A stretch of 64,000 bases of DNA from Candidatus Saccharimonadota bacterium (GCA_029260875.1 JAJDCL010000028.1:1161-65160), one strand, 5' to 3'. Counted from the stretch's first letter, positions 5,944-20,879 are shown. A program made the numbers and translations. The notes: a model not told the origin generated them from the letters alone.

Positions 5944-7035
5944 GTGGCTCAAAATACAATCGAAATCAATGGCAGACATTACGACGCGTTATCTGGCAAA
6001 CTACTAGATAACGGCCATCTGAAACCGACCAAAAAAAGTAGTTCAAAAACCGGTACTCAGGTAGTAGACGGGTTCATAAGACGGCCAAAACAAGCCCTGC
6101 CCAGGCAAGCGACCCCTTCACACAAAGTGCATAGCAAAGCCTCTCACTCAAAAACCCTTATGAGAACGTCTGTGAAGAAACCGGCCCAAAAAATCACGGC
6201 AATACATAATAAGAATTACTCTACCTATCATCCCAACGAAAGCAACAGCTCAAGGACAGAAAGGCCAGATCACGTTGACAGCACGCGCATAGAGCGAGCA
6301 GCAGCCATACACAGAAGCAGCTTGGTGAGTAGATTTGGCGAGATTGGTAGTCATATAACCAAACGTGTTGCCCCTATAGCTGTCAAGCCCGCCCCTGAGC
6401 ACGGCAAAACCGCACTCCATAGCGCAAGCACCCCGATAGACTTACGAGGCACTAACCCTGCTAGTGTAGTAGAGGAACCGTTGAGCCCTTTTGACATTGC
6501 CCTGCAAAAGGCTGACTCGCACAAGCTATCGCGGACCAAGAGGCAATCATTAAAACAGCGTACCGCGCGCAAGCTACGTATAAGTACCCATGCGCTGAGT
6601 CTTGCTATGGGCGTATTTCTTGCATTATTTGTTGGGGGGATTCTTGCGTACCGCAGCGTCCCTCAAATTGCACTCAAAATTGCCTCCACACGTGCAGGGG
6701 TTAGAGCTCAACTACCATCCTATCAGCCGTCCGGCTTTTCGCTCAGCGGCCCAGTCCAATATGGTGATGGCGTGGTTACTTTAAAGTATGAGTCCAATTC
6801 TGATGACCGCAATTTTAGCGTGGTTCAGAAAAAGTCCGACCTAAATAGCCAGTCACTAGCAGAAAATTTCACAACCGCTCAAAGCACATATCAAACCTTT
6901 GAAGATAAGGGTCGTACAATTTTTGTTTACGAAGGCAGCAATGCCACATGGGTGAACGGCGGTGTGTGGTACACGGTAGAAGGCGAATCAGAACTTTCTA
7001 GCGACCAGCTCCGCCGAATTGTCTCCGGCCTTTAA
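5944..7035 (+). CDS. Hypothetical single-pass membrane protein (basic, Ser/Thr-rich N-terminal half)
   Basis: 363-aa ORF with a GTG start. It has a TM helix (LSLAMGVFLALFVGGILAY) and no motif I recognise. Confidence 0.5.
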   Translation: MAQNTIEINGRHYDALSGKLLDNGHLKPTKKSSSKTGTQVVDGFIRRPKQALPRQATPSHKVHSKASHSKTLMRTSVKKPAQKITAIHNKNYSTYHPNESNSSRTERPDHVDSTRIERAAAIHRSSLVSRFGEIGSHITKRVAPIAVKPAPEHGKTALHSASTPIDLRGTNPASVVEEPLSPFDIALQKADSHKLSRTKRQSLKQRTARKLRISTHALSLAMGVFLALFVGGILAYRSVPQIALKIASTRAGVRAQLPSYQPSGFSLSGPVQYGDGVVTLKYESNSDDRNFSVVQKKSDLNSQSLAENFTTAQSTYQTFEDKGRTIFVYEGSNATWVNGGVWYTVEGESELSSDQLRRIVSGL

Positions 7036-14799: not shown

Positions 14800-14874
14800 G
14801 GTCCCATCGTCTAGCGGTTAGGACACCAGGTTCTCATCCTGGCAACAGGGGTTCGATTCCCCTTGGGATCACCA
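14800..14874 (+). tRNA. tRNA-Glu(CUC), CCA encoded
   Basis: Sequence is GGTCCCATCGTCTAGCGGTTAGGACACCAGGTTCTCATCCTGGCAACAGGGGTTCGATTCCCCTTGGGATCACCA. The anticodon stem is CCAGG/CCTGG, the loop is TT-CTC-AT and the T-loop is GGTTCGATTCC. Confidence 0.9.
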
Positions 14875-16375
14875 CAAGAGACTCATCTACATCAGATGGG
14901 TCTTTTTTGTTTGCTATAACAGATAACAGCGGGCTTAATTTTGCGGTTCCAAAACCGTTTTCAAAGTCATATACGATTCCATCTGGAAAAAGTAACTTTT
15001 GAATATCTTGTCGTATCTTGGTATTTGCACGGTTCCAGAATATGTCAGGTGTGGTTATGAAACTCATTGCATCATCTACGATCTGTTCTTTTTCCTTTAC
15101 GTACTGGTCGGCCTCAATTTGCTCATCCTCTAGATCATTAATCTTTTCTGCAATATTGGCGATCTGAGCCTGCTTATCCTCCTCAGTGATCTTATCCAAG
15201 ATAAACTTTTCTGTGGTAGCTTTTCTAAGTTGGCGGTAATAGTCGATCTCCTTGCTTATGCGTGCGGCGTTCTCAACAGCTTGGCCATACTCATCGTTCC
15301 ACGCTCTGAGCACGATTACCTTGTATAGCTTGGTGATACCACTGAGGGGTCTTAGGTTCTCGAGGTACTCCCTGAATAATTTATGCGTTATATCAGCATC
15401 TGCGCTGGCTTTTCTGCCAGTTACTTTCTTTTTGCAGGTAGGCTGATTGCAATGGTACATGGGGTAGTAGCTACCACTCCTGCCTCTAGACGAGCTGGCT
15501 GTAAGTGCCTTGCTGCAATTTGAGCACAGTAAGGTGCCTCTCAATGGGAACATGTCATCGCCACGAAGTACGTAGGTCTTTTTTGAGCCCTGTATCAAGT
15601 CAATGTTCTTGTAGATTACTTCCTCATCAACCAACGCCTTGTGCATGCCTCTATGGACTTTAGGGGATAGCTTATTCTTGGTATAACCCGCATAGATTAG
15701 ATTCTGGAGTATCTTTTTCAATGCATCAGTTGATTTTGGCTTACCACTCTTGGTCTGTATGCCTTGCGTAAACGCATAGCGTGCAATCTGTGCAAGTGAA
15801 AAAGTACCAGTTGAGAACTTAACGAGAACATCAGTAATCTTTGATGCGTAGACAGGATCGGCAACAACACGTGCGTTCTTTTTAGTGTAGCCAATAGGTG
15901 CCGAGTGTGGCCAGCCACCTTGCTCGACCCTTACACGCATGCCGCTCACTGTACGTATCGCACGGATCTCATTATCGAACTGTGCCGCAGCTGCAAGGAT
16001 TGCCTCAAGAAATCTGCCGACAGGATCATCATCAATAGGCTCAGTAACAGATACAATCCTCACACCATACTTAGCAAGTGCAACCTTAATACCATAGTAA
16101 TCACCTAGGTTGCGTGCCAGTCGATCAATTTTCCAGATGTATAGAATCTCAACCTGATTCTTTTTATCTTTGACGTATTGGAGTAGGTTCTGTAACTCTG
16201 GTCGATCTATGAACTTGGCCGATTCGCCTCGCTCTCTGAATATGTTTTGTTCTGGAACTAGAGTTTTCTGATCTTGTGCAAACTTTTTACACTCTTTCTC
16301 TTGAGAATCTAGGCTGGTTTTGCCATCAACTTGTTCCTTTGTGGAGACACGTGTATAGATAATTCCAACGCTCAT
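14834..16375 (-). CDS. Large serine recombinase (integrase)
   Basis: 513 aa. The N-terminal resolvase domain has IIYTRVSTKEQ (catalytic Ser) and IDRLARN. The recombinase domain has GGWPHSAPIGY. A Cys-rich zinc ribbon (LLCSNCSKAL...YHCNQPTCKKK) and a coiled-coil tail follow. The 3' end is antisense to the terminator and tRNA-Glu. Confidence 0.9.
   Translation of the reverse strand: MSVGIIYTRVSTKEQVDGKTSLDSQEKECKKFAQDQKTLVPEQNIFRERGESAKFIDRPELQNLLQYVKDKKNQVEILYIWKIDRLARNLGDYYGIKVALAKYGVRIVSVTEPIDDDPVGRFLEAILAAAAQFDNEIRAIRTVSGMRVRVEQGGWPHSAPIGYTKKNARVVADPVYASKITDVLVKFSTGTFSLAQIARYAFTQGIQTKSGKPKSTDALKKILQNLIYAGYTKNKLSPKVHRGMHKALVDEEVIYKNIDLIQGSKKTYVLRGDDMFPLRGTLLCSNCSKALTASSSRGRSGSYYPMYHCNQPTCKKKVTGRKASADADITHKLFREYLENLRPLSGITKLYKVIVLRAWNDEYGQAVENAARISKEIDYYRQLRKATTEKFILDKITEEDKQAQIANIAEKINDLEDEQIEADQYVKEKEQIVDDAMSFITTPDIFWNRANTKIRQDIQKLLFPDGIVYDFENGFGTAKLSPLLSVIANKKDPSDVDESLVVIPRGIEPLLPG
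14881..14908 (+). terminator. Intrinsic terminator of the tRNA-Glu unit; also part of the left att-like repeat
   Basis: ACTCATCT-ACATC-AGATGGGT forms 8 bp including one G.U, followed by CTTTTTT. Confidence 0.7.
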
Positions 16376-16413
16376 GGAACCAGTATATAACGAAACTGTA
16401 ACTGTTATGAAAA

Positions 16414-16572
16414 CTAATTTAGATGTTTTGGAACCGAACTACGTATTGTTTCTCTCGCAACGGATTCCAGTAACACAATCAGGCGTTCTATCTCATCATC
16501 AGAAAACTGCTTGAACTCTGTACCAAGCAGTTTTCTCGCCTCTTTAATTGTGATGATGGGATCTGGTTGCAT
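16414..16572 (-). CDS. Small ORF (52 aa) upstream of and co-oriented with the recombinase; possible directionality or DNA-binding factor
   Basis: Own translation gives MQPDPIITIKEARKLLGTEFKQFSDDEIERLIVLLESVARETIRSSVPKHLN. It is below the track's size cut-off and ends 38 nt before the recombinase start. Confidence 0.35.
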   Translation of the reverse strand: MQPDPIITIKEARKLLGTEFKQFSDDEIERLIVLLESVARETIRSSVPKHLN

Positions 16573-16743
16573 TTGTGGCTCTCGTGCGAGCCAAGAAAAA
16601 AACAGCCCGCAACTTTAATAGTTGTCTTGGCTGTTTGCCTATGCAGGAAATTATACAGCTCACAGCAAAATCCGTAAATGTTACCACGGTGTTAACAACA
16701 TAGCCTATAGGTGTTTCTACCCCCGATGTAATAGAATAAAAAG

Positions 16744-16864
16744 GTCTAAACCAACAATTGAGGCGCACCAACAGTGCGTGATTAAGCCTTGTAATGGGCA
16801 TCACGCAGGCAGTAGGGCTTAATAACTCTATTGTTGGTTTAGACACCAGCGTGGTGTCCTTTTT
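16744..16864 (+). ncRNA. Candidate sRNA of about 120 nt: closed three-way junction plus intrinsic terminator
   Basis: P1 pairs 16744-16758 with 16830-16844 (15 perfect bp). P2 is 16763-16779. P3 pairs 16781-16788 with 16816-16823. The terminator GACACCA-GCG-TGGTGTC-CTTTTT lies at 16842-16864. A TAGAAT -10 lies at 16732-16737. Confidence 0.4.
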
Positions 16865-16881
16865 AATTTGAGGAGAAAATA

Positions 16882-16986
16882 ATGGGTTTCATTAGAAACG
16901 ATTGGCATGAGCAAGGTATTGTTACCAAGATACTACTTGTTCTTGGTCTGATCATCGCAGCCATTGTTTGGCTTGCTAAAAACTGA
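16882..16986 (+). CDS. 34-aa single-TM micro-protein
   Basis: AGGAG at 16871-16875 lies 6 nt before the ATG. The product is MGFIRNDWHEQGIVTKILLVLGLIIAAIVWLAKN. Below the track's size cut-off. Confidence 0.4.
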   Translation: MGFIRNDWHEQGIVTKILLVLGLIIAAIVWLAKN

Positions 16987-17087
16987 TTGTTTTTCAGTTT
17001 TTTCAGTTACAAAAGCGGGTCTGAAAAACAATTGTTTTTCGTTTTTCCGTTTTAGAAAATCAGCTTAAAAAGTTGATTGTTTTTCAA
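16985..17087. repeat. Iteron/operator array: ATTGTTTTTC three times at exact 45-bp spacing, the middle copy within a perfect 18-bp palindrome
   Basis: ATTGTTTTTC occurs at 16986-16995, 17031-17040 and 17076-17085. GAAAAACAATTGTTTTTC occupies 17023-17040. Confidence 0.6.
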
Positions 17088-17148
17088 TTAATCAATTTTC
17101 CCACCAACTCCTTTGAATAAGATAGGCATCAGGGGTACTATATTAGTA

Positions 17149-18846
17149 ATGAAAGCAACTAAGGTAACAGTCCATAACTACCGATCGATACACGATGCCA
17201 CCTTTGATCTGGCTGACTATGCTCTGCTCATCGGATCCAACAATGCTGGCAAGAGTACATTTGCTAACGCCATCAGGGTTTTTTATGAAAAAGACGGTTT
17301 CAAGTACGATTCAAAGAAAGATTACCCATTTGATCTAGTAAAAGATGCCGAGCGTGAATCTTGGGTGGAAATATGGTTTGAGCTCGATCAAGATGAGTAC
17401 GATAACCTCGCAGAGAAGTACAAGCAAGTTGATAAGGTGTTGAAAGTTCGCAGGTATCTAGAAACCGCAACTTACAAGAACCACGAGGGCAAGGCTGGAT
17501 CTGGTCAGATTTTTGGCTACAAGACTGACGGCACCTTAGATAACGAGGCGTTTTATGGCGCAAAGAACGTTCAAAGTGGAAAGTTCGGAGAGCTGATTTT
17601 TATACCTGCCATCAGTAAGGTAGATGATCACACAAAGTTTAGCGGTGCATCTGCGTTGAGAGACCTTGTAACTGATATCCTCTCTGGTACCACTGACTTT
17701 GATGCCAACTACGGCGCATTAGAGGAAAACTTTACGACTTTCTCTAGTGCTATGCAATCCTCCAGTACCGCCGATGGCCGTTCCCTAAAGGCTGTTGAGG
17801 ACTCGCTGACTGGCATGCTAGAGGATTGGGGTATTGGGTTCAAGTTGACTTGGAAAACTCCCTCGATAGCTGAGATCATCAAGTCCATGATTAACTCCAC
17901 CTACACCGACCTAGCGCACGACAAAGAGATATTGATAACAGATGCTGGCTCTGGTTTTCAGCGACACCTTATCTACAGTGTTATCAAGACGGGTGCAGAT
18001 TTTGCTGCAAAAAAACCTAAAGCTAAAAAGACTAGCTTTGAACCAGAGCTTAGATGGATCGTATTCGAGGAACCAGAGGCTTTTCTCCATCCTCCGCAGC
18101 AAAACGAGCTTTCACGTAGCTTGCAGAAACTATCCGAGCTAGATAGTACACAGGTGTTATGCACCACTCACTCGCCGAACTTTGTAAACAAGAATATGCA
18201 GGCCATCACCAGCGTTGCTCGTGTGCAGAAAAACAAGAAAGGCTATGCTGATTTCTATCAGATTAGCGACACGACTTGGCAAGATATCACCGACAATAAC
18301 CAACTTATTAGCGCACTGCCATCAGCACCAGCGGCGCACCCTGATGATCTAGATCCTGAAATGGAGGCCATCAAGTACGCAATTTATCTGAATCCAGATC
18401 GTGCATGCATGTTCTTTGCTAAGAGAGTGCTGATTGTTGAGGGCGCAACAGAGGTTGCGTTAATAAACCACTTGATTGATATCGGTGAAATAAAGGCGAG
18501 CCTATCTGGCCTGCATGTAATTGATGCAATTGGCAAGTTCAACATCCATAGGTTTATGAAACTCCTTGAGTGTTTGGGCATTGAGCACTCCGTCTTGCAT
18601 GATGCTGATGCACCAGCAAAGACCTTACAGCAAGAGATTAATCAGCTTATCCAAGATTCCTCCAATACTTTTACGTACAAGATTGAAACGCTTGACCCTG
18701 ATCTAGAAACTTACCTAGGCCTGCCTGCGGTTGGTTCACGCCACGATCGTAAGCCACAGAGTGCGATCTATAACTACAACAACAGCAACTACGACACAGC
18801 AAAGATGGCCAGTTTCAAAACTCTGATTGAGAGCCTTGTTTCCTAG
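17149..18846 (+). CDS. OLD-family nuclease (ABC-type ATPase + C-terminal TOPRIM), stand-alone
   Basis: Motifs are Walker A GSNNAGKST, Walker B IVFEEPEAFLHP, H-loop TTHSP, and TOPRIM LIVEGATE ... HDADA. I prefer the ATG at 17149 over the track's TTG at 17113, which is in the same frame. Confidence 0.85.
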   Translation: MKATKVTVHNYRSIHDATFDLADYALLIGSNNAGKSTFANAIRVFYEKDGFKYDSKKDYPFDLVKDAERESWVEIWFELDQDEYDNLAEKYKQVDKVLKVRRYLETATYKNHEGKAGSGQIFGYKTDGTLDNEAFYGAKNVQSGKFGELIFIPAISKVDDHTKFSGASALRDLVTDILSGTTDFDANYGALEENFTTFSSAMQSSSTADGRSLKAVEDSLTGMLEDWGIGFKLTWKTPSIAEIIKSMINSTYTDLAHDKEILITDAGSGFQRHLIYSVIKTGADFAAKKPKAKKTSFEPELRWIVFEEPEAFLHPPQQNELSRSLQKLSELDSTQVLCTTHSPNFVNKNMQAITSVARVQKNKKGYADFYQISDTTWQDITDNNQLISALPSAPAAHPDDLDPEMEAIKYAIYLNPDRACMFFAKRVLIVEGATEVALINHLIDIGEIKASLSGLHVIDAIGKFNIHRFMKLLECLGIEHSVLHDADAPAKTLQQEINQLIQDSSNTFTYKIETLDPDLETYLGLPAVGSRHDRKPQSAIYNYNNSNYDTAKMASFKTLIESLVS

Positions 18847-19151
18847 CTAGCAGCTAGGTTTCCATCACTATTACTCAAACAGATACAGGAGTGAGTTGCC
18901 GCACAGCGTTAACTATCTGCCACATAGCTATTAGTTCTCGCTTGATTTGTTTCCAGTTCGCACCTATCAAGCTCACCATTTAGAAGCTCATCTACTAGAT
19001 GGGCTTTTTACATGGCTCATGCTCAACAAAACTGGCGGTTTACCGTATACTGAAGCATAAGCGCGTTTTTACACGCGATATTTCCATATGGCGGGCAATT
19101 TATGTACACACAAAAGACCAAAATTAGTACGACATCGGATGGGCTGCGTTA

Positions 19152-20879
19152 ATGCAGTTCGTGTCTGACAAATATTACTATTGGTATAACTGGGCCGTAA
19201 CAGCCGTAGGTCTGCTGATGACTAGCGGTAGCATTGTTGCACTAACCGCGCCCATAGGTGTTTTTACCCCCGAAAACGGTTTTATTGCTATGACAGCTAT
19301 TATTGGGCTAACCCAAGTCATCTATGGCGTGATATTCTTTAGGCTAAAGGCAAGGAGCAGCCCCTGGATAGCCGCTTTGATATCTGCCATGCTGCTTGCT
19401 CTTAACATTATTAACCTTATGCAAGACACCGGCCAATTGCACTCACAGTACTGGGTGCTCTGGGCTTTGCAGGCATTTTTTAGCGGACTGTTTGGTGCAT
19501 ATGTGGTTGCTGCTGTTTGTTTTCTTATTACTTTATATTTTGTGCTTGTAGCAACAGGCGAAACCGGCACCCAGCGGTTTGATATGATCAGCCTGGGCGC
19601 TGTTATTGGCACATACCTGATTGGTATAGCAGGGTATCTGGTGTGGCGAAACCTATACGTTGACCACGAAACAAAGCGGGTCCAAAAACTAACAGGCCAA
19701 CTTAAAACAAATCAGCAACAGGCAGAAATGCTCATCCAATCTATAAGTGATGGGCTGGTAGTAATTACGCCTGAGGGCAAAATCAGCCTGATTAATCCTG
19801 CTGCTGCTAAACTAACTGGCTGGGCAGTAGACGAGGCAATCGGCCTTGATGCGCGCCTGGTTATTAAGCTCCAAGAAGAAGACGGCAAGCCAATTGAAGA
19901 GATAAGCAACCCACTTAAAGCCGTATTTGATAAATCCCAAACCGTCAGCACCGAGAAGCAGCTCGTTAAACGTGACGGCAAGTCGGTCATAGTCTCTATA
20001 GTAGTTTCGCCGGTCATATTACCAAAAACGGATGCCGTAAACAGTGCAGTGGCTATCATAAGAGATATCAGCGTCAGCCGTGCCGAAGAAAAGCGCCGAG
20101 CCGACTTCATAAGTACAGCCTCTCACGAAATGCGCACGCCAGTCGCAGCCATAGAAGGCTATCTAGCGCTAGCCCTAAACAATAAAGTATCGTCCATTGA
20201 CAGTAAGGCGCGTGGCTTTTTGGAAAAAGCTCATTCTTCAACGCAGCACCTGGGTAAGCTTTTTCAGGATTTGCTTACCAGCGCCAGGGCAGAAGACGGA
20301 AGGCTTGTTAGCCACCCTGTAGTTATAGAGATGGGCTCGTATCTTGAGCAGTTGACCGACTCTTTGAGATTTGCCGCCGAAAAAAAGGGCCTGATGATGG
20401 ATTTCGTTATAGGCGCCGAGGGCAATATAACAGCGGGTAGCAAGGTAATTAAGCCGCTATACTATGTCCAGGTTGACCCAGATCGCATAAGAGAGGTTGT
20501 AACCAATCTGTTTGACAACGCAACCAAGTATACAGAAGCAGGGAAAATATCTGTCGGGCTTACTGGCAACAATGATGTTATACAGATATATATCAAGGAT
20601 ACTGGTGCGGGCATACCAGCTGACGACATCCCGCATCTTTTTCAGAAGTTTTACAGAGTAGACAGCTCGGCTACACGCACAATCGGCGGTACCGGGCTCG
20701 GGCTGTTCATTTGTCGCAAGATAATCGAGCTTTATAGTGGCCGTATCTGGGTAGAAAGCGAGCTTAACAAGGGCAGTACGTTCTACATTAATCTACCAAG
20801 GTTAAGTAGCCAAAAAGCCGCTGAACTGCAGGCCACCGAGACAGAACAATCATCAACCTTATCCCAGCCCATAAACTGA
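19152..20879 (+). CDS. Membrane sensor histidine kinase (multi-TM + PAS + HisKA + HATPase)
   Basis: 575 aa with the H-box SHEMRTPVAAIEGYL, the N-box NLFDNATKY and the G-boxes DTGAGI / GGTGLGL. Confidence 0.9.
   Translation: MQFVSDKYYYWYNWAVTAVGLLMTSGSIVALTAPIGVFTPENGFIAMTAIIGLTQVIYGVIFFRLKARSSPWIAALISAMLLALNIINLMQDTGQLHSQYWVLWALQAFFSGLFGAYVVAAVCFLITLYFVLVATGETGTQRFDMISLGAVIGTYLIGIAGYLVWRNLYVDHETKRVQKLTGQLKTNQQQAEMLIQSISDGLVVITPEGKISLINPAAAKLTGWAVDEAIGLDARLVIKLQEEDGKPIEEISNPLKAVFDKSQTVSTEKQLVKRDGKSVIVSIVVSPVILPKTDAVNSAVAIIRDISVSRAEEKRRADFISTASHEMRTPVAAIEGYLALALNNKVSSIDSKARGFLEKAHSSTQHLGKLFQDLLTSARAEDGRLVSHPVVIEMGSYLEQLTDSLRFAAEKKGLMMDFVIGAEGNITAGSKVIKPLYYVQVDPDRIREVVTNLFDNATKYTEAGKISVGLTGNNDVIQIYIKDTGAGIPADDIPHLFQKFYRVDSSATRTIGGTGLGLFICRKIIELYSGRIWVESELNKGSTFYINLPRLSSQKAAELQATETEQSSTLSQPIN

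Follow-up and report, generated by a model that had tools for sequence, protein, structure and literature searches.

Saccharibacteria and other CPR bacteria have tiny genomes, and our literature search turned up neither a regulatory RNA nor a small integrative element described in these bacteria. The locus studied here raises the question whether a hairpin-rich intergenic region beside a recombinase gene encodes an RNA and, if so, what that RNA does. The region lies in a 64,000-nucleotide stretch of DNA, hereafter called the window. From hand folding, a first-pass annotation had described a long closing helix P1, two hairpins P2 and P3, an overlapping intrinsic terminator and an upstream TAGAAT box, and reading of the window sequence found every one of these at the positions given below. 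The large serine recombinase (LSR) of the window has its relatives in Saccharimonadales/Saccharibacteria MAGs and genomes, which places the window in that lineage.

The island around the RNA

The RNA module resides in a 4-gene island of about 4.1 kb adjoining tRNA-Glu (14800-14874). The LSR gene (14834-16375, minus strand) matches the Pfam families Resolvase, Recombinase and Zn_ribbon_recom, and the last ~13 codons of its ORF overlap the 3' half of tRNA-Glu on the opposite strand. Just before it, on the same strand, lies a 52-aa gene (16414-16572) without Pfam match. Directly ahead of the LSR in most related loci, RNA present or not, stands a 50-70 aa protein of the type (I)TVKEARKLLG..F..L.D.E, which is a candidate directionality factor or regulator. 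The operon of the 52-aa gene and the LSR has a near-consensus divergent promoter (16650-16678, minus strand; TTTACG, 17 nt, TATAAT; 10/12 matches) that is directed away from the RNA. The -35 box of this promoter is overlapped by a terminator-like hairpin on the minus strand (16672-16689; CCGTGGTAACATTTACGG followed by ATTTTG), which may be an operator or a stop for antisense transcription.

The single-gene cargo of the island is an OLD-family nuclease (17113-18846) with AAA_15 ATPase and OLD-like TOPRIM domains. Between a micro-ORF that follows the RNA and the OLD gene there are three 22-nt repeats of the AAAACTGATTGTTTTTCAGTT type (16978-17089) with an exact spacing of 45 nt, the middle one being part of a near-palindrome, GAAAAACAATTGTTTTTC. 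These repeats look like operators or iterons, and are followed by a possible promoter for a leaderless OLD mRNA (TTGAAT, 17 nt, TACTAT). The terminator hairpin after tRNA-Glu (14877-14912) has a near copy at 18982-19010, and the two probably mark the island ends. Beyond the island lie core genes, namely those of a histidine kinase, a response regulator, Der, Pth, DprA and TopA.

At the same place, related LSR islands carry an Eco57I-type methyltransferase, DUF2326, a reverse transcriptase, SocA_Panacea, HATPase_c_3, DUF6829 or a HEPN protein with an ADP-ribosylglycohydrolase, much of it of defence type. Therefore, these small islands represent a cargo hotspot in Saccharibacteria. In the loci L045-L049, L051 and L062 the LSR gene lies 0.1-4.7 kb from a conserved pair of tilS-like (ATP_bind_3) and ftsH genes, a neighbourhood seen in many related genomes, as opposed to tRNA-Glu in the window; the LSR family may thus use more than one attachment site.

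Fold of the RNA in the window

All elements of the fold are read on the plus strand. The core of P1 pairs positions 16744-16758 with 16830-16844 in 15 perfect base pairs. The full 5' arm (16744-16762; 15 bp, a U-U mismatch and 3 bp) starts with the nearly invariant GUCU, and the 3' arm (16826-16844) has AGAC as its last bases; a repeat search recovered these extended arms as 19 positions with one T-T mismatch, 95% complementary. The hairpin P2 (16763-16779) consists of GCGCAC (16763-16768), the loop CAACA and GUGCGU (16774-16779), and is closed by the pair G16763-U16779. P3 pairs ATTAAGCC (16781-16788) with GGCTTAAT (16816-16823) around a 27-nt loop (16789-16815), which contains a conserved A-rich stretch, GGGCA (16796-16800) and a segment termed X' (UCACGCA, 16801-16807). 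The intrinsic terminator (16842-16864) comprises GACACCA-GCG-TGGTGTC (16842-16858) followed by CUUUUU. Its 7-bp stem (4 GC) carries a 3-nt loop and has the bases GAC in common with P1, and a terminator scan called it independently.

RNAfold returned the same fold as drawn by hand, at -51.4 kcal/mol with a z score of -5.15, and none of 200 shuffles was equally stable. The reverse strand is nearly as foldable (z = -5.5). Therefore, the folding energy alone cannot choose the strand, and the choice is made by the comparative data. Allowing up to 2 mismatches, the P1 15-mer has no second copy within the window; the P1 arm being single-copy there, a MITE or dispersed repeat was ruled out.

Collection of homologues

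Searches by blastn and nhmmer with the intergenic region of the window against the first 16 loci gave no usable match. A scan for long closing helices upstream of LSR genes revealed a design shared by several loci, in which the helix sequences differ and the ends GTCTWA...TWAGAC are kept. A covariance model (CM) built on the window as sole sequence, R1, matched L009, L003, L012, L026, L033, L038, L031 and L047. A second model, R2, was built from seven sequences found by R1, with the window left out. R2 matched the window with 91.9 bits (E ~6e-16) and its reverse strand with 27 bits, a test that is independent in sequence and not in the choice of sequences, since the training set had been gathered via the window-based R1. 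R2 added L008, which belongs to strain TM7i (complete genome CP075337), L040 and L049, and later L051, L053 and L061.

A search of IMG/VR for relatives of the LSR found none; DNA patterns derived from the conserved 3' part of the RNA retrieved the IMG/VR copies L070, L080 and L066, the last one truncated. Starting from the downstream protein of L080, a further copy (L164) was found in the complete genome RAAC3_TM7_1 (CP006915). These searches, confined to the fetched DNA, yielded 18 distinct homologues, of which 14 lie beside LSR genes in Saccharibacteria genomes and metagenomes, 3 on IMG/VR contigs and 1 in the RAAC3_TM7_1 genome. The motif occurs in about one third of the fetched LSR loci, leaving about two thirds of the related recombinase loci without the RNA. 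It is also absent from L158-L163, which encode homologues of the BLIP-like downstream protein; therefore, the RNA is not obligatory for the BLIP-like gene family.

Covariation and strand

Base pairs were counted in a 16-sequence alignment (A10) fitted to the structure of the model, a procedure that favours this structure; standard pairs were found in 89.6% of the cells, against 64.1% in shuffles, and 29 of the 34 pairs had changed on both sides, against 19.8 in shuffles. The covariation test that the first-pass annotation had suggested yielded compensatory changes in P1, P3 and the terminator. The covariation score was 0.683 compared with 0.205 for shuffled alignments, none of 500 reaching it, and dropped to 0.12 or below when the pairing partners were slid by 1-3 columns. 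Paired fractions were 96.9% in the outer helix of P1, 81.7% in P3 and 89.1% in the terminator, and changes on both sides affected 9/12 pairs of P1 (helix 1), 10/11 pairs of P3 (helix 5) and 3/4 modelled pairs of the terminator. The number of distinct pair types per column is beyond what fitting of the alignment can create; in one P1 column, for instance, 6 sequences have AU, 6 GC and 4 CG. The base of P1, GUCU/AGAC, is nearly invariant, and the sole exception (L040) has GCUU/AAGC, a double compensatory change. As judged by eye, a small hairpin of varying length and position occupies the place of P2 in most homologues, and no P2-type hairpin was found in L033; the CM alignment models P2 poorly. 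Among unpaired blocks, GGCA is the best conserved in the 16 sequences.

The strand was revealed by two further results. Sense matches to the CM scored 47-92 bits against 18-27 bits for antisense matches, and the pairs include 44 G-U against 11 A-C, an excess that is expected only if the plus strand is the RNA. An RNA-level element read from the plus strand, as had been annotated, is therefore upheld by the covarying homologues, the strand asymmetry of the CM and the G-U excess.

Protein-coding explanations were also considered. Two overlapping ORFs (16544-16846, minus strand; 16622-16822, plus strand) had been noted to lack protein-like features, and they are not conserved: stop-free stretches of the homologues lie on strands and in frames that differ from locus to locus, so that a coding region was ruled out, neither frame nor strand being conserved. 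A short ORF from the AUG in the P3 loop was likewise ruled out, as this AUG is replaced by ACG, GCG or UCG and the frames differ.

Could the inverted repeat act as DNA instead, as a recombination, replication or transfer site that forms a cruciform or a single-strand hairpin? The nearly equal foldability of the reverse strand would fit such a site, the ends GTCTWA...TWAGAC around a variable core recall recombination sites such as attC, and most copies reside in recombinase islands. However, neither the CM strand asymmetry (80-90 bits against 18-27 bits) nor the predominance of G-U over A-C by 4 to 1 would be expected of a DNA site, and the -10 box upstream and the terminator downstream keep one fixed orientation. 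In addition, there is a single copy per element, located mid-element rather than at the ends, and some copies have no recombinase nearby. The attC core AAC/GTT is not kept either: within the ends GTCTWAN...NTWAGAC, positions 5-7 vary (AAA, TAA, TAC, ACG, AGG), each locus has one copy, and the adjacent enzyme is a serine recombinase and not the tyrosine recombinase IntI. We consider a DNA-level element extremely improbable. The region is thus predicted to be a conserved structured RNA of about 120 nt that was previously uncatalogued.

An extra pairing between J2/3 and the P3 loop

In the window a 7-nt segment X (UGCGUGA, 16775-16781, plus strand), which overlaps the 3' arm of P2 and the joining segment J2/3, pairs with X' in the P3 loop. 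Among the homologues X is located just 5' of P3, and in some sequences it overlaps the 3' arm of P2. The pairing was evaluated in 14 sequences by a custom script. Complementarity between X and the P3 loop exceeded that of shuffled loops with p <= 0.056 in 10/14 sequences, and the X:X' duplex energies gave a Fisher combined p of ~3e-9, a value that is indicative only, as the sequences are related. The commonest form pairs GYACGG with CCGUGC. Departures from it on one side are accompanied by fitting changes on the other, as in the window, L009 (UUACGUG/CGCGUAA) and L053 (UGGUUG/CAACCA), and in L033 the pairing is lengthened to 9 bp. Formed alongside P3, the X:X' pairing would give rise to a pseudoknot; in sequences where it runs into P2, it could represent an alternative fold instead.

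Predicted promoter, start and terminator

The -10 box TAGAAT (16732-16737, plus strand) predicts a transcription start at G16743/G16744. A TAnnnT hexamer, mostly TATAAT, precedes the G of GUCU by 6 nt in 11/14 sequences and by 7 nt in 3/14, with a TG extension in several of the 14. Since the -10 box keeps a fixed distance from GUCU, the RNA is predicted to start at the base of P1, just 3' of the -10 box, as had been annotated; the spacing of 6-7 nt holds in 14/14 sequences. No convincing -35 hexamer was seen in the window, and the promoter scan does not call the RNA promoter.

The -35 region of this promoter is overlapped by one copy (16703-16726) of a 24-nt direct repeat, identical at 22/24 positions to the other copy (19250-19273), which is located within the coding sequence of the histidine kinase near its 5' end, ~260 bp beyond the presumed island end. 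Such a match is expected by chance about 1e-4 times in 6 kb by our estimate, and no further copy was found in the window or in 63 loci. Possible explanations of the repeat are an operator, a scar of recombination or a regulatory link.

At the other end, a GC-rich hairpin with a U run overlaps the end of P1 by 2-3 nt in every homologue, often with 1-2 non-U nucleotides ahead of the U run. With its GC-rich hairpin and direct U run, the structure in the window is a predicted intrinsic terminator.

The downstream gene

Behind the terminator, a Shine-Dalgarno (SD) sequence GAGGAG (16870-16875) precedes a micro-ORF on the plus strand (ATG 16882 to stop 16986; 34 aa), whose product MGFIRNDWHEQGIVTKILLVLGLIIAAIVWLAKN is a hydrophobic helix. 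The U run and the ATG are 17 nt apart; therefore, the micro-ORF could be transcribed by read-through only. Throughout the homologues the next gene has the same strand as the RNA and usually an SD, and its start codon is found 15-28 nt past the U run in 10/14 copies and 43-53 nt past it in 4. The short gap in most copies leaves no room for a promoter, so that read-through is required. The first-pass annotation had offered a discrete RNA of about 120 nt or a terminating leader of the micro-ORF, and the 18 homologues, the fixed -10 box, the terminator and the adjacent start codon are consistent with the RNA being both.

Pairing of the RNA to the downstream ribosome-binding site was rejected as a candidate, no conserved pairing being seen. 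A resemblance in the window between AAUUGAGG of P1 and AAUUUGAGG of the SD region is absent from two homologues compared by eye.

A hydrophobic membrane segment, mostly N-terminal, is found in the product of the first downstream gene at 16 or more of the 18 loci. The ORF is peptide-sized (34-38 aa) in two of them, the window and L003, and these two invite comparison with type I toxin-antitoxin systems, in which the RNA would control a toxic small membrane peptide: a hydrophobic first ORF with a strong SD comes right after the RNA. However, the RNA and the ORF share a strand, with no overlap and no antisense complementarity, and the other 16 loci encode mostly 76-260 aa proteins with an N-terminal anchor and an extracytoplasmic domain. 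These fall into several unrelated families, and BLIP-like (PF07467) or DUF4352-type domains occur in some of them. A toxin-antitoxin function is therefore very unlikely, and the antitoxin-like role considered at first finds no support, there being no antisense overlap or repeats and the downstream protein usually being an anchored one of 120-260 aa.

The RNA is divergent from the recombinase in the window, L003, L008, L009, L012, L026, L047, L049 and L051, and co-directional with it in L031, L033, L038, L053, L066 and L070. The co-directional operons have the order RNA, membrane protein(s), a DUF5681-like protein, a ~200-aa protein, the small KEARKLLG protein and the LSR. Within the fetched flanks of L080 and L164 there is no recombinase. 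Thus the membrane-protein gene stays with the RNA, be the recombinase divergent, co-directional or absent from the fetched flanks. The locus L080 is a 12-kb phage-like contig (IMGVR_UViG_3300013296_000082) with the RNA at 6201-6326 on the minus strand. There the RNA lies between genes for a PTH2 peptidyl-tRNA hydrolase and a BLIP-like anchored protein; an RNA ligase, PNKP, a truncated CCA-adding or poly(A) polymerase-like gene, two endonuclease VII genes and a Tet/JBP oxygenase are nearby, and the contig also carries a glucosyltransferase-like gene.

Beyond the membrane protein, the cargo is different at every locus. As the cargo varies and the RNA keeps its membrane-protein gene, the OLD nuclease is not the partner of the RNA, and the annotated link to this nuclease was dropped. 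Two further suggestions also found no support. Against a guide-like role stand variable segments that lie within helices, copies of the RNA without a recombinase nearby and the lack of a match to the island ends as judged by eye; a copy-control role does not suit a 4-gene island without a replication gene.

Proposed mechanism

At the level of sequence comparison, we regard two points as established: a strand-specific, conserved structured RNA unit with its own predicted promoter and terminator lies in the leader of a membrane-protein gene or operon, and this unit is carried by mobile elements of Saccharibacteria and is also present in a phage-like contig. We propose, giving it about an even chance, that the RNA serves as a terminating leader, or attenuator, and at the same time as the source of a stable small RNA. 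As a small autonomous transcription unit borne by these elements, it would be transcribed from a sigma-70-type promoter firing at or beside the G of 5'-GUCU. The transcript would fold into a three-way junction, in which P1 (15-20 bp) joins the 5' end to the stretch immediately preceding the terminator, P2 is a short hairpin that varies among copies, and the loop of ~27 nt on P3 (8-10 bp) would pair with J2/3, making a pseudoknot or else an alternative helix. The end of P1 and the terminator have 2-3 nt in common. At this terminator most transcripts would stop, giving a compact RNA of ~120 nt with both ends buried in helices, and the polymerases reading through would be the sole source of mRNA for the next gene. 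The product of read-through would be the 34-aa membrane peptide in the window and, in co-directional elements, the whole operon ending in the recombinase. In this way the leader would set or gate the expression of the downstream membrane-protein operon, and in co-directional elements that of the recombinase operon too. Read-through might result from constitutive leakiness, or its level might be adjusted by a partner able to recognise this conserved fold. We infer that read-through is the regulated step; conservation of the fold points to a partner, either a protein or a small molecule, or to a function of the terminated RNA itself.

Several points argue against an attenuator. The long and stable P1 makes a competition between P1 and terminator of the riboswitch type unlikely; the two overlap by only 2-3 nt, and inspection found no clear on/off alternative structure. 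No candidate for an element-encoded antiterminator was found in the 4-gene island. In addition, the downstream families are unrelated, so that no common regulated function can be read from them, the RNA is missing from about two thirds of the related recombinase loci, and a stand-alone sRNA gene with incidental read-through would look alike.

In that case the terminated ~120-nt RNA would be the functional product and act in trans as a regulator, decoy or scaffold, by a logic like that of the immunity RNAs P4 CI and P1 C4 or of other phage sRNAs. With a predicted promoter and a terminator of its own and with ends buried in helices, it follows a design typical of stable RNAs, unpaired nucleotides (the A-rich stretch and GGCA) are conserved, and in L080 the RNA is a separate unit in a co-directional array beside RNA-repair genes (RNA ligase, PNKP, PTH2). 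However, such an RNA would not need its strict adjacency and orientation to the next gene, a membrane-protein gene in at least 16 of the 18 loci; a by-eye search of the window for complementary targets found just a 6-nt match to the kinase mRNA, and there is no match to the C4 family or another Rfam sRNA. A trans-acting RNA is possible in our view, on the doubtful side.

The junction could also sense a ligand. A riboswitch-like RNA would bind a small molecule or an ion through the three-way junction and the pseudoknot and so modulate termination, and the junction, the loop-to-junction pairing, the terminator touching P1 and the 5'-leader position do resemble known aptamers; several of the downstream genes encode envelope proteins. 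However, a P1 of 15-20 bp forms without ligand, few junction nucleotides are invariant and no mutually exclusive antiterminator was found. Downstream there are heterogeneous anchored proteins instead of transporters or enzymes of one pathway, and the RNA is confined to mobile elements. We judge a riboswitch-like sensor to be unlikely. There is likewise a small chance that the RNA represents a new class of sensing leader, whose junction and pseudoknot would be bound by a small molecule or by a protein of the host or the element, and which would switch on surface-protein genes in mobile elements and phages of the episymbiotic Saccharibacteria, together with the recombinase operon where this is co-directional. 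If so, excision or transfer of the co-directional elements would be tied to a cellular signal.

Whichever of these holds, the RNA identifies a module, made up of promoter, RNA, terminator and membrane-protein gene, that recurs in small serine-recombinase islands with defence-type cargo (the OLD nuclease in the window; restriction-modification, reverse transcriptase and others elsewhere) and in at least one phage-like contig. If the proposed leader gates surface proteins or the recombinase operon, it would offer a handle on element control in organisms that are hard to study. As a well-supported orphan motif from a poorly explored lineage, the RNA would also be a ready candidate for Rfam.

Comparison with known systems

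The RNA was compared with Rfam 15 (4227 models), membership being assigned where the gathering threshold is reached. The scan of the whole window at gathering thresholds returned only two tRNAs. A permissive search (E <= 10) of positions 16300-17300 and of three homologues gave only isolated miRNA and snoRNA matches below threshold, regarded as noise, and none of these families recurred. The RNA thus matches no family, just as none could be assigned to it at first, and our literature search found no described RNA of this sort.

Among known systems, the nearest to it in logic are leader-embedded phage immunity RNAs, the pR'-6S-tR' unit of lambda, the put RNAs and riboswitch leaders, whereas its shape recalls the pRNA of phi29. 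The immunity RNAs, CI RNA of P4 and C4 RNA of P1/P7 (RF01695), resemble the present RNA as structured mobile-element RNAs of ~80-120 nt that stand at the operon start after a promoter, and premature termination of the operon as the regulated step, in P4 CI and P1 C4, is counted as a further likeness. In contrast to these RNAs, the RNA described here obtains its 3' end by its own intrinsic terminator rather than by processing, shows no seqA/seqC- or a2/b2-type target repeats downstream as far as judged by eye in the window, has no Rfam match, and differs in host phylum and element type. The pR'-6S-tR' unit of lambda, controlled by Q, shares the arrangement of a promoter, a short transcript terminated at once and downstream genes that need read-through; in put of HK022 the folded nascent RNA itself acts on the polymerase. 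However, the 4-gene island is without a Q- or N-like protein, lambda 6S RNA is without a conserved covarying fold such as the one found here, and the put RNAs consist of a pair of simple stem-loops to which no terminator is attached.

Riboswitches of the THF/ZTP type are similar in the 5'-leader position, the junction, the loop-to-junction pairing and the terminator touching P1, and differ in that the present RNA has a P1 of 15-20 bp, few invariant core nucleotides, no antiterminator that could be found, no Rfam riboswitch match, and heterogeneous downstream genes borne by mobile elements. The pRNA of phi29 (RF00044) is also phage-associated and ~120 nt long; its 5' and 3' ends pair in a closing helix, it too forms a three-way junction, and segments of its two hairpins are complementary. 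Unlike pRNA, the present RNA has no Rfam match and is followed by a terminator and a membrane-protein gene, and its islands lack genes for a packaging motor, a connector and a terminal protein. Type I toxin-antitoxin loci share with the window and L003 a small structured RNA beside a gene for a short hydrophobic peptide in a mobile element; they differ by their antisense layout, which is not seen here, and most loci of the present RNA encode larger anchored proteins. We would therefore class the RNA, by its predicted fold and its surroundings, as a new family within a known general kind, namely the leader or small RNA of a mobile element.
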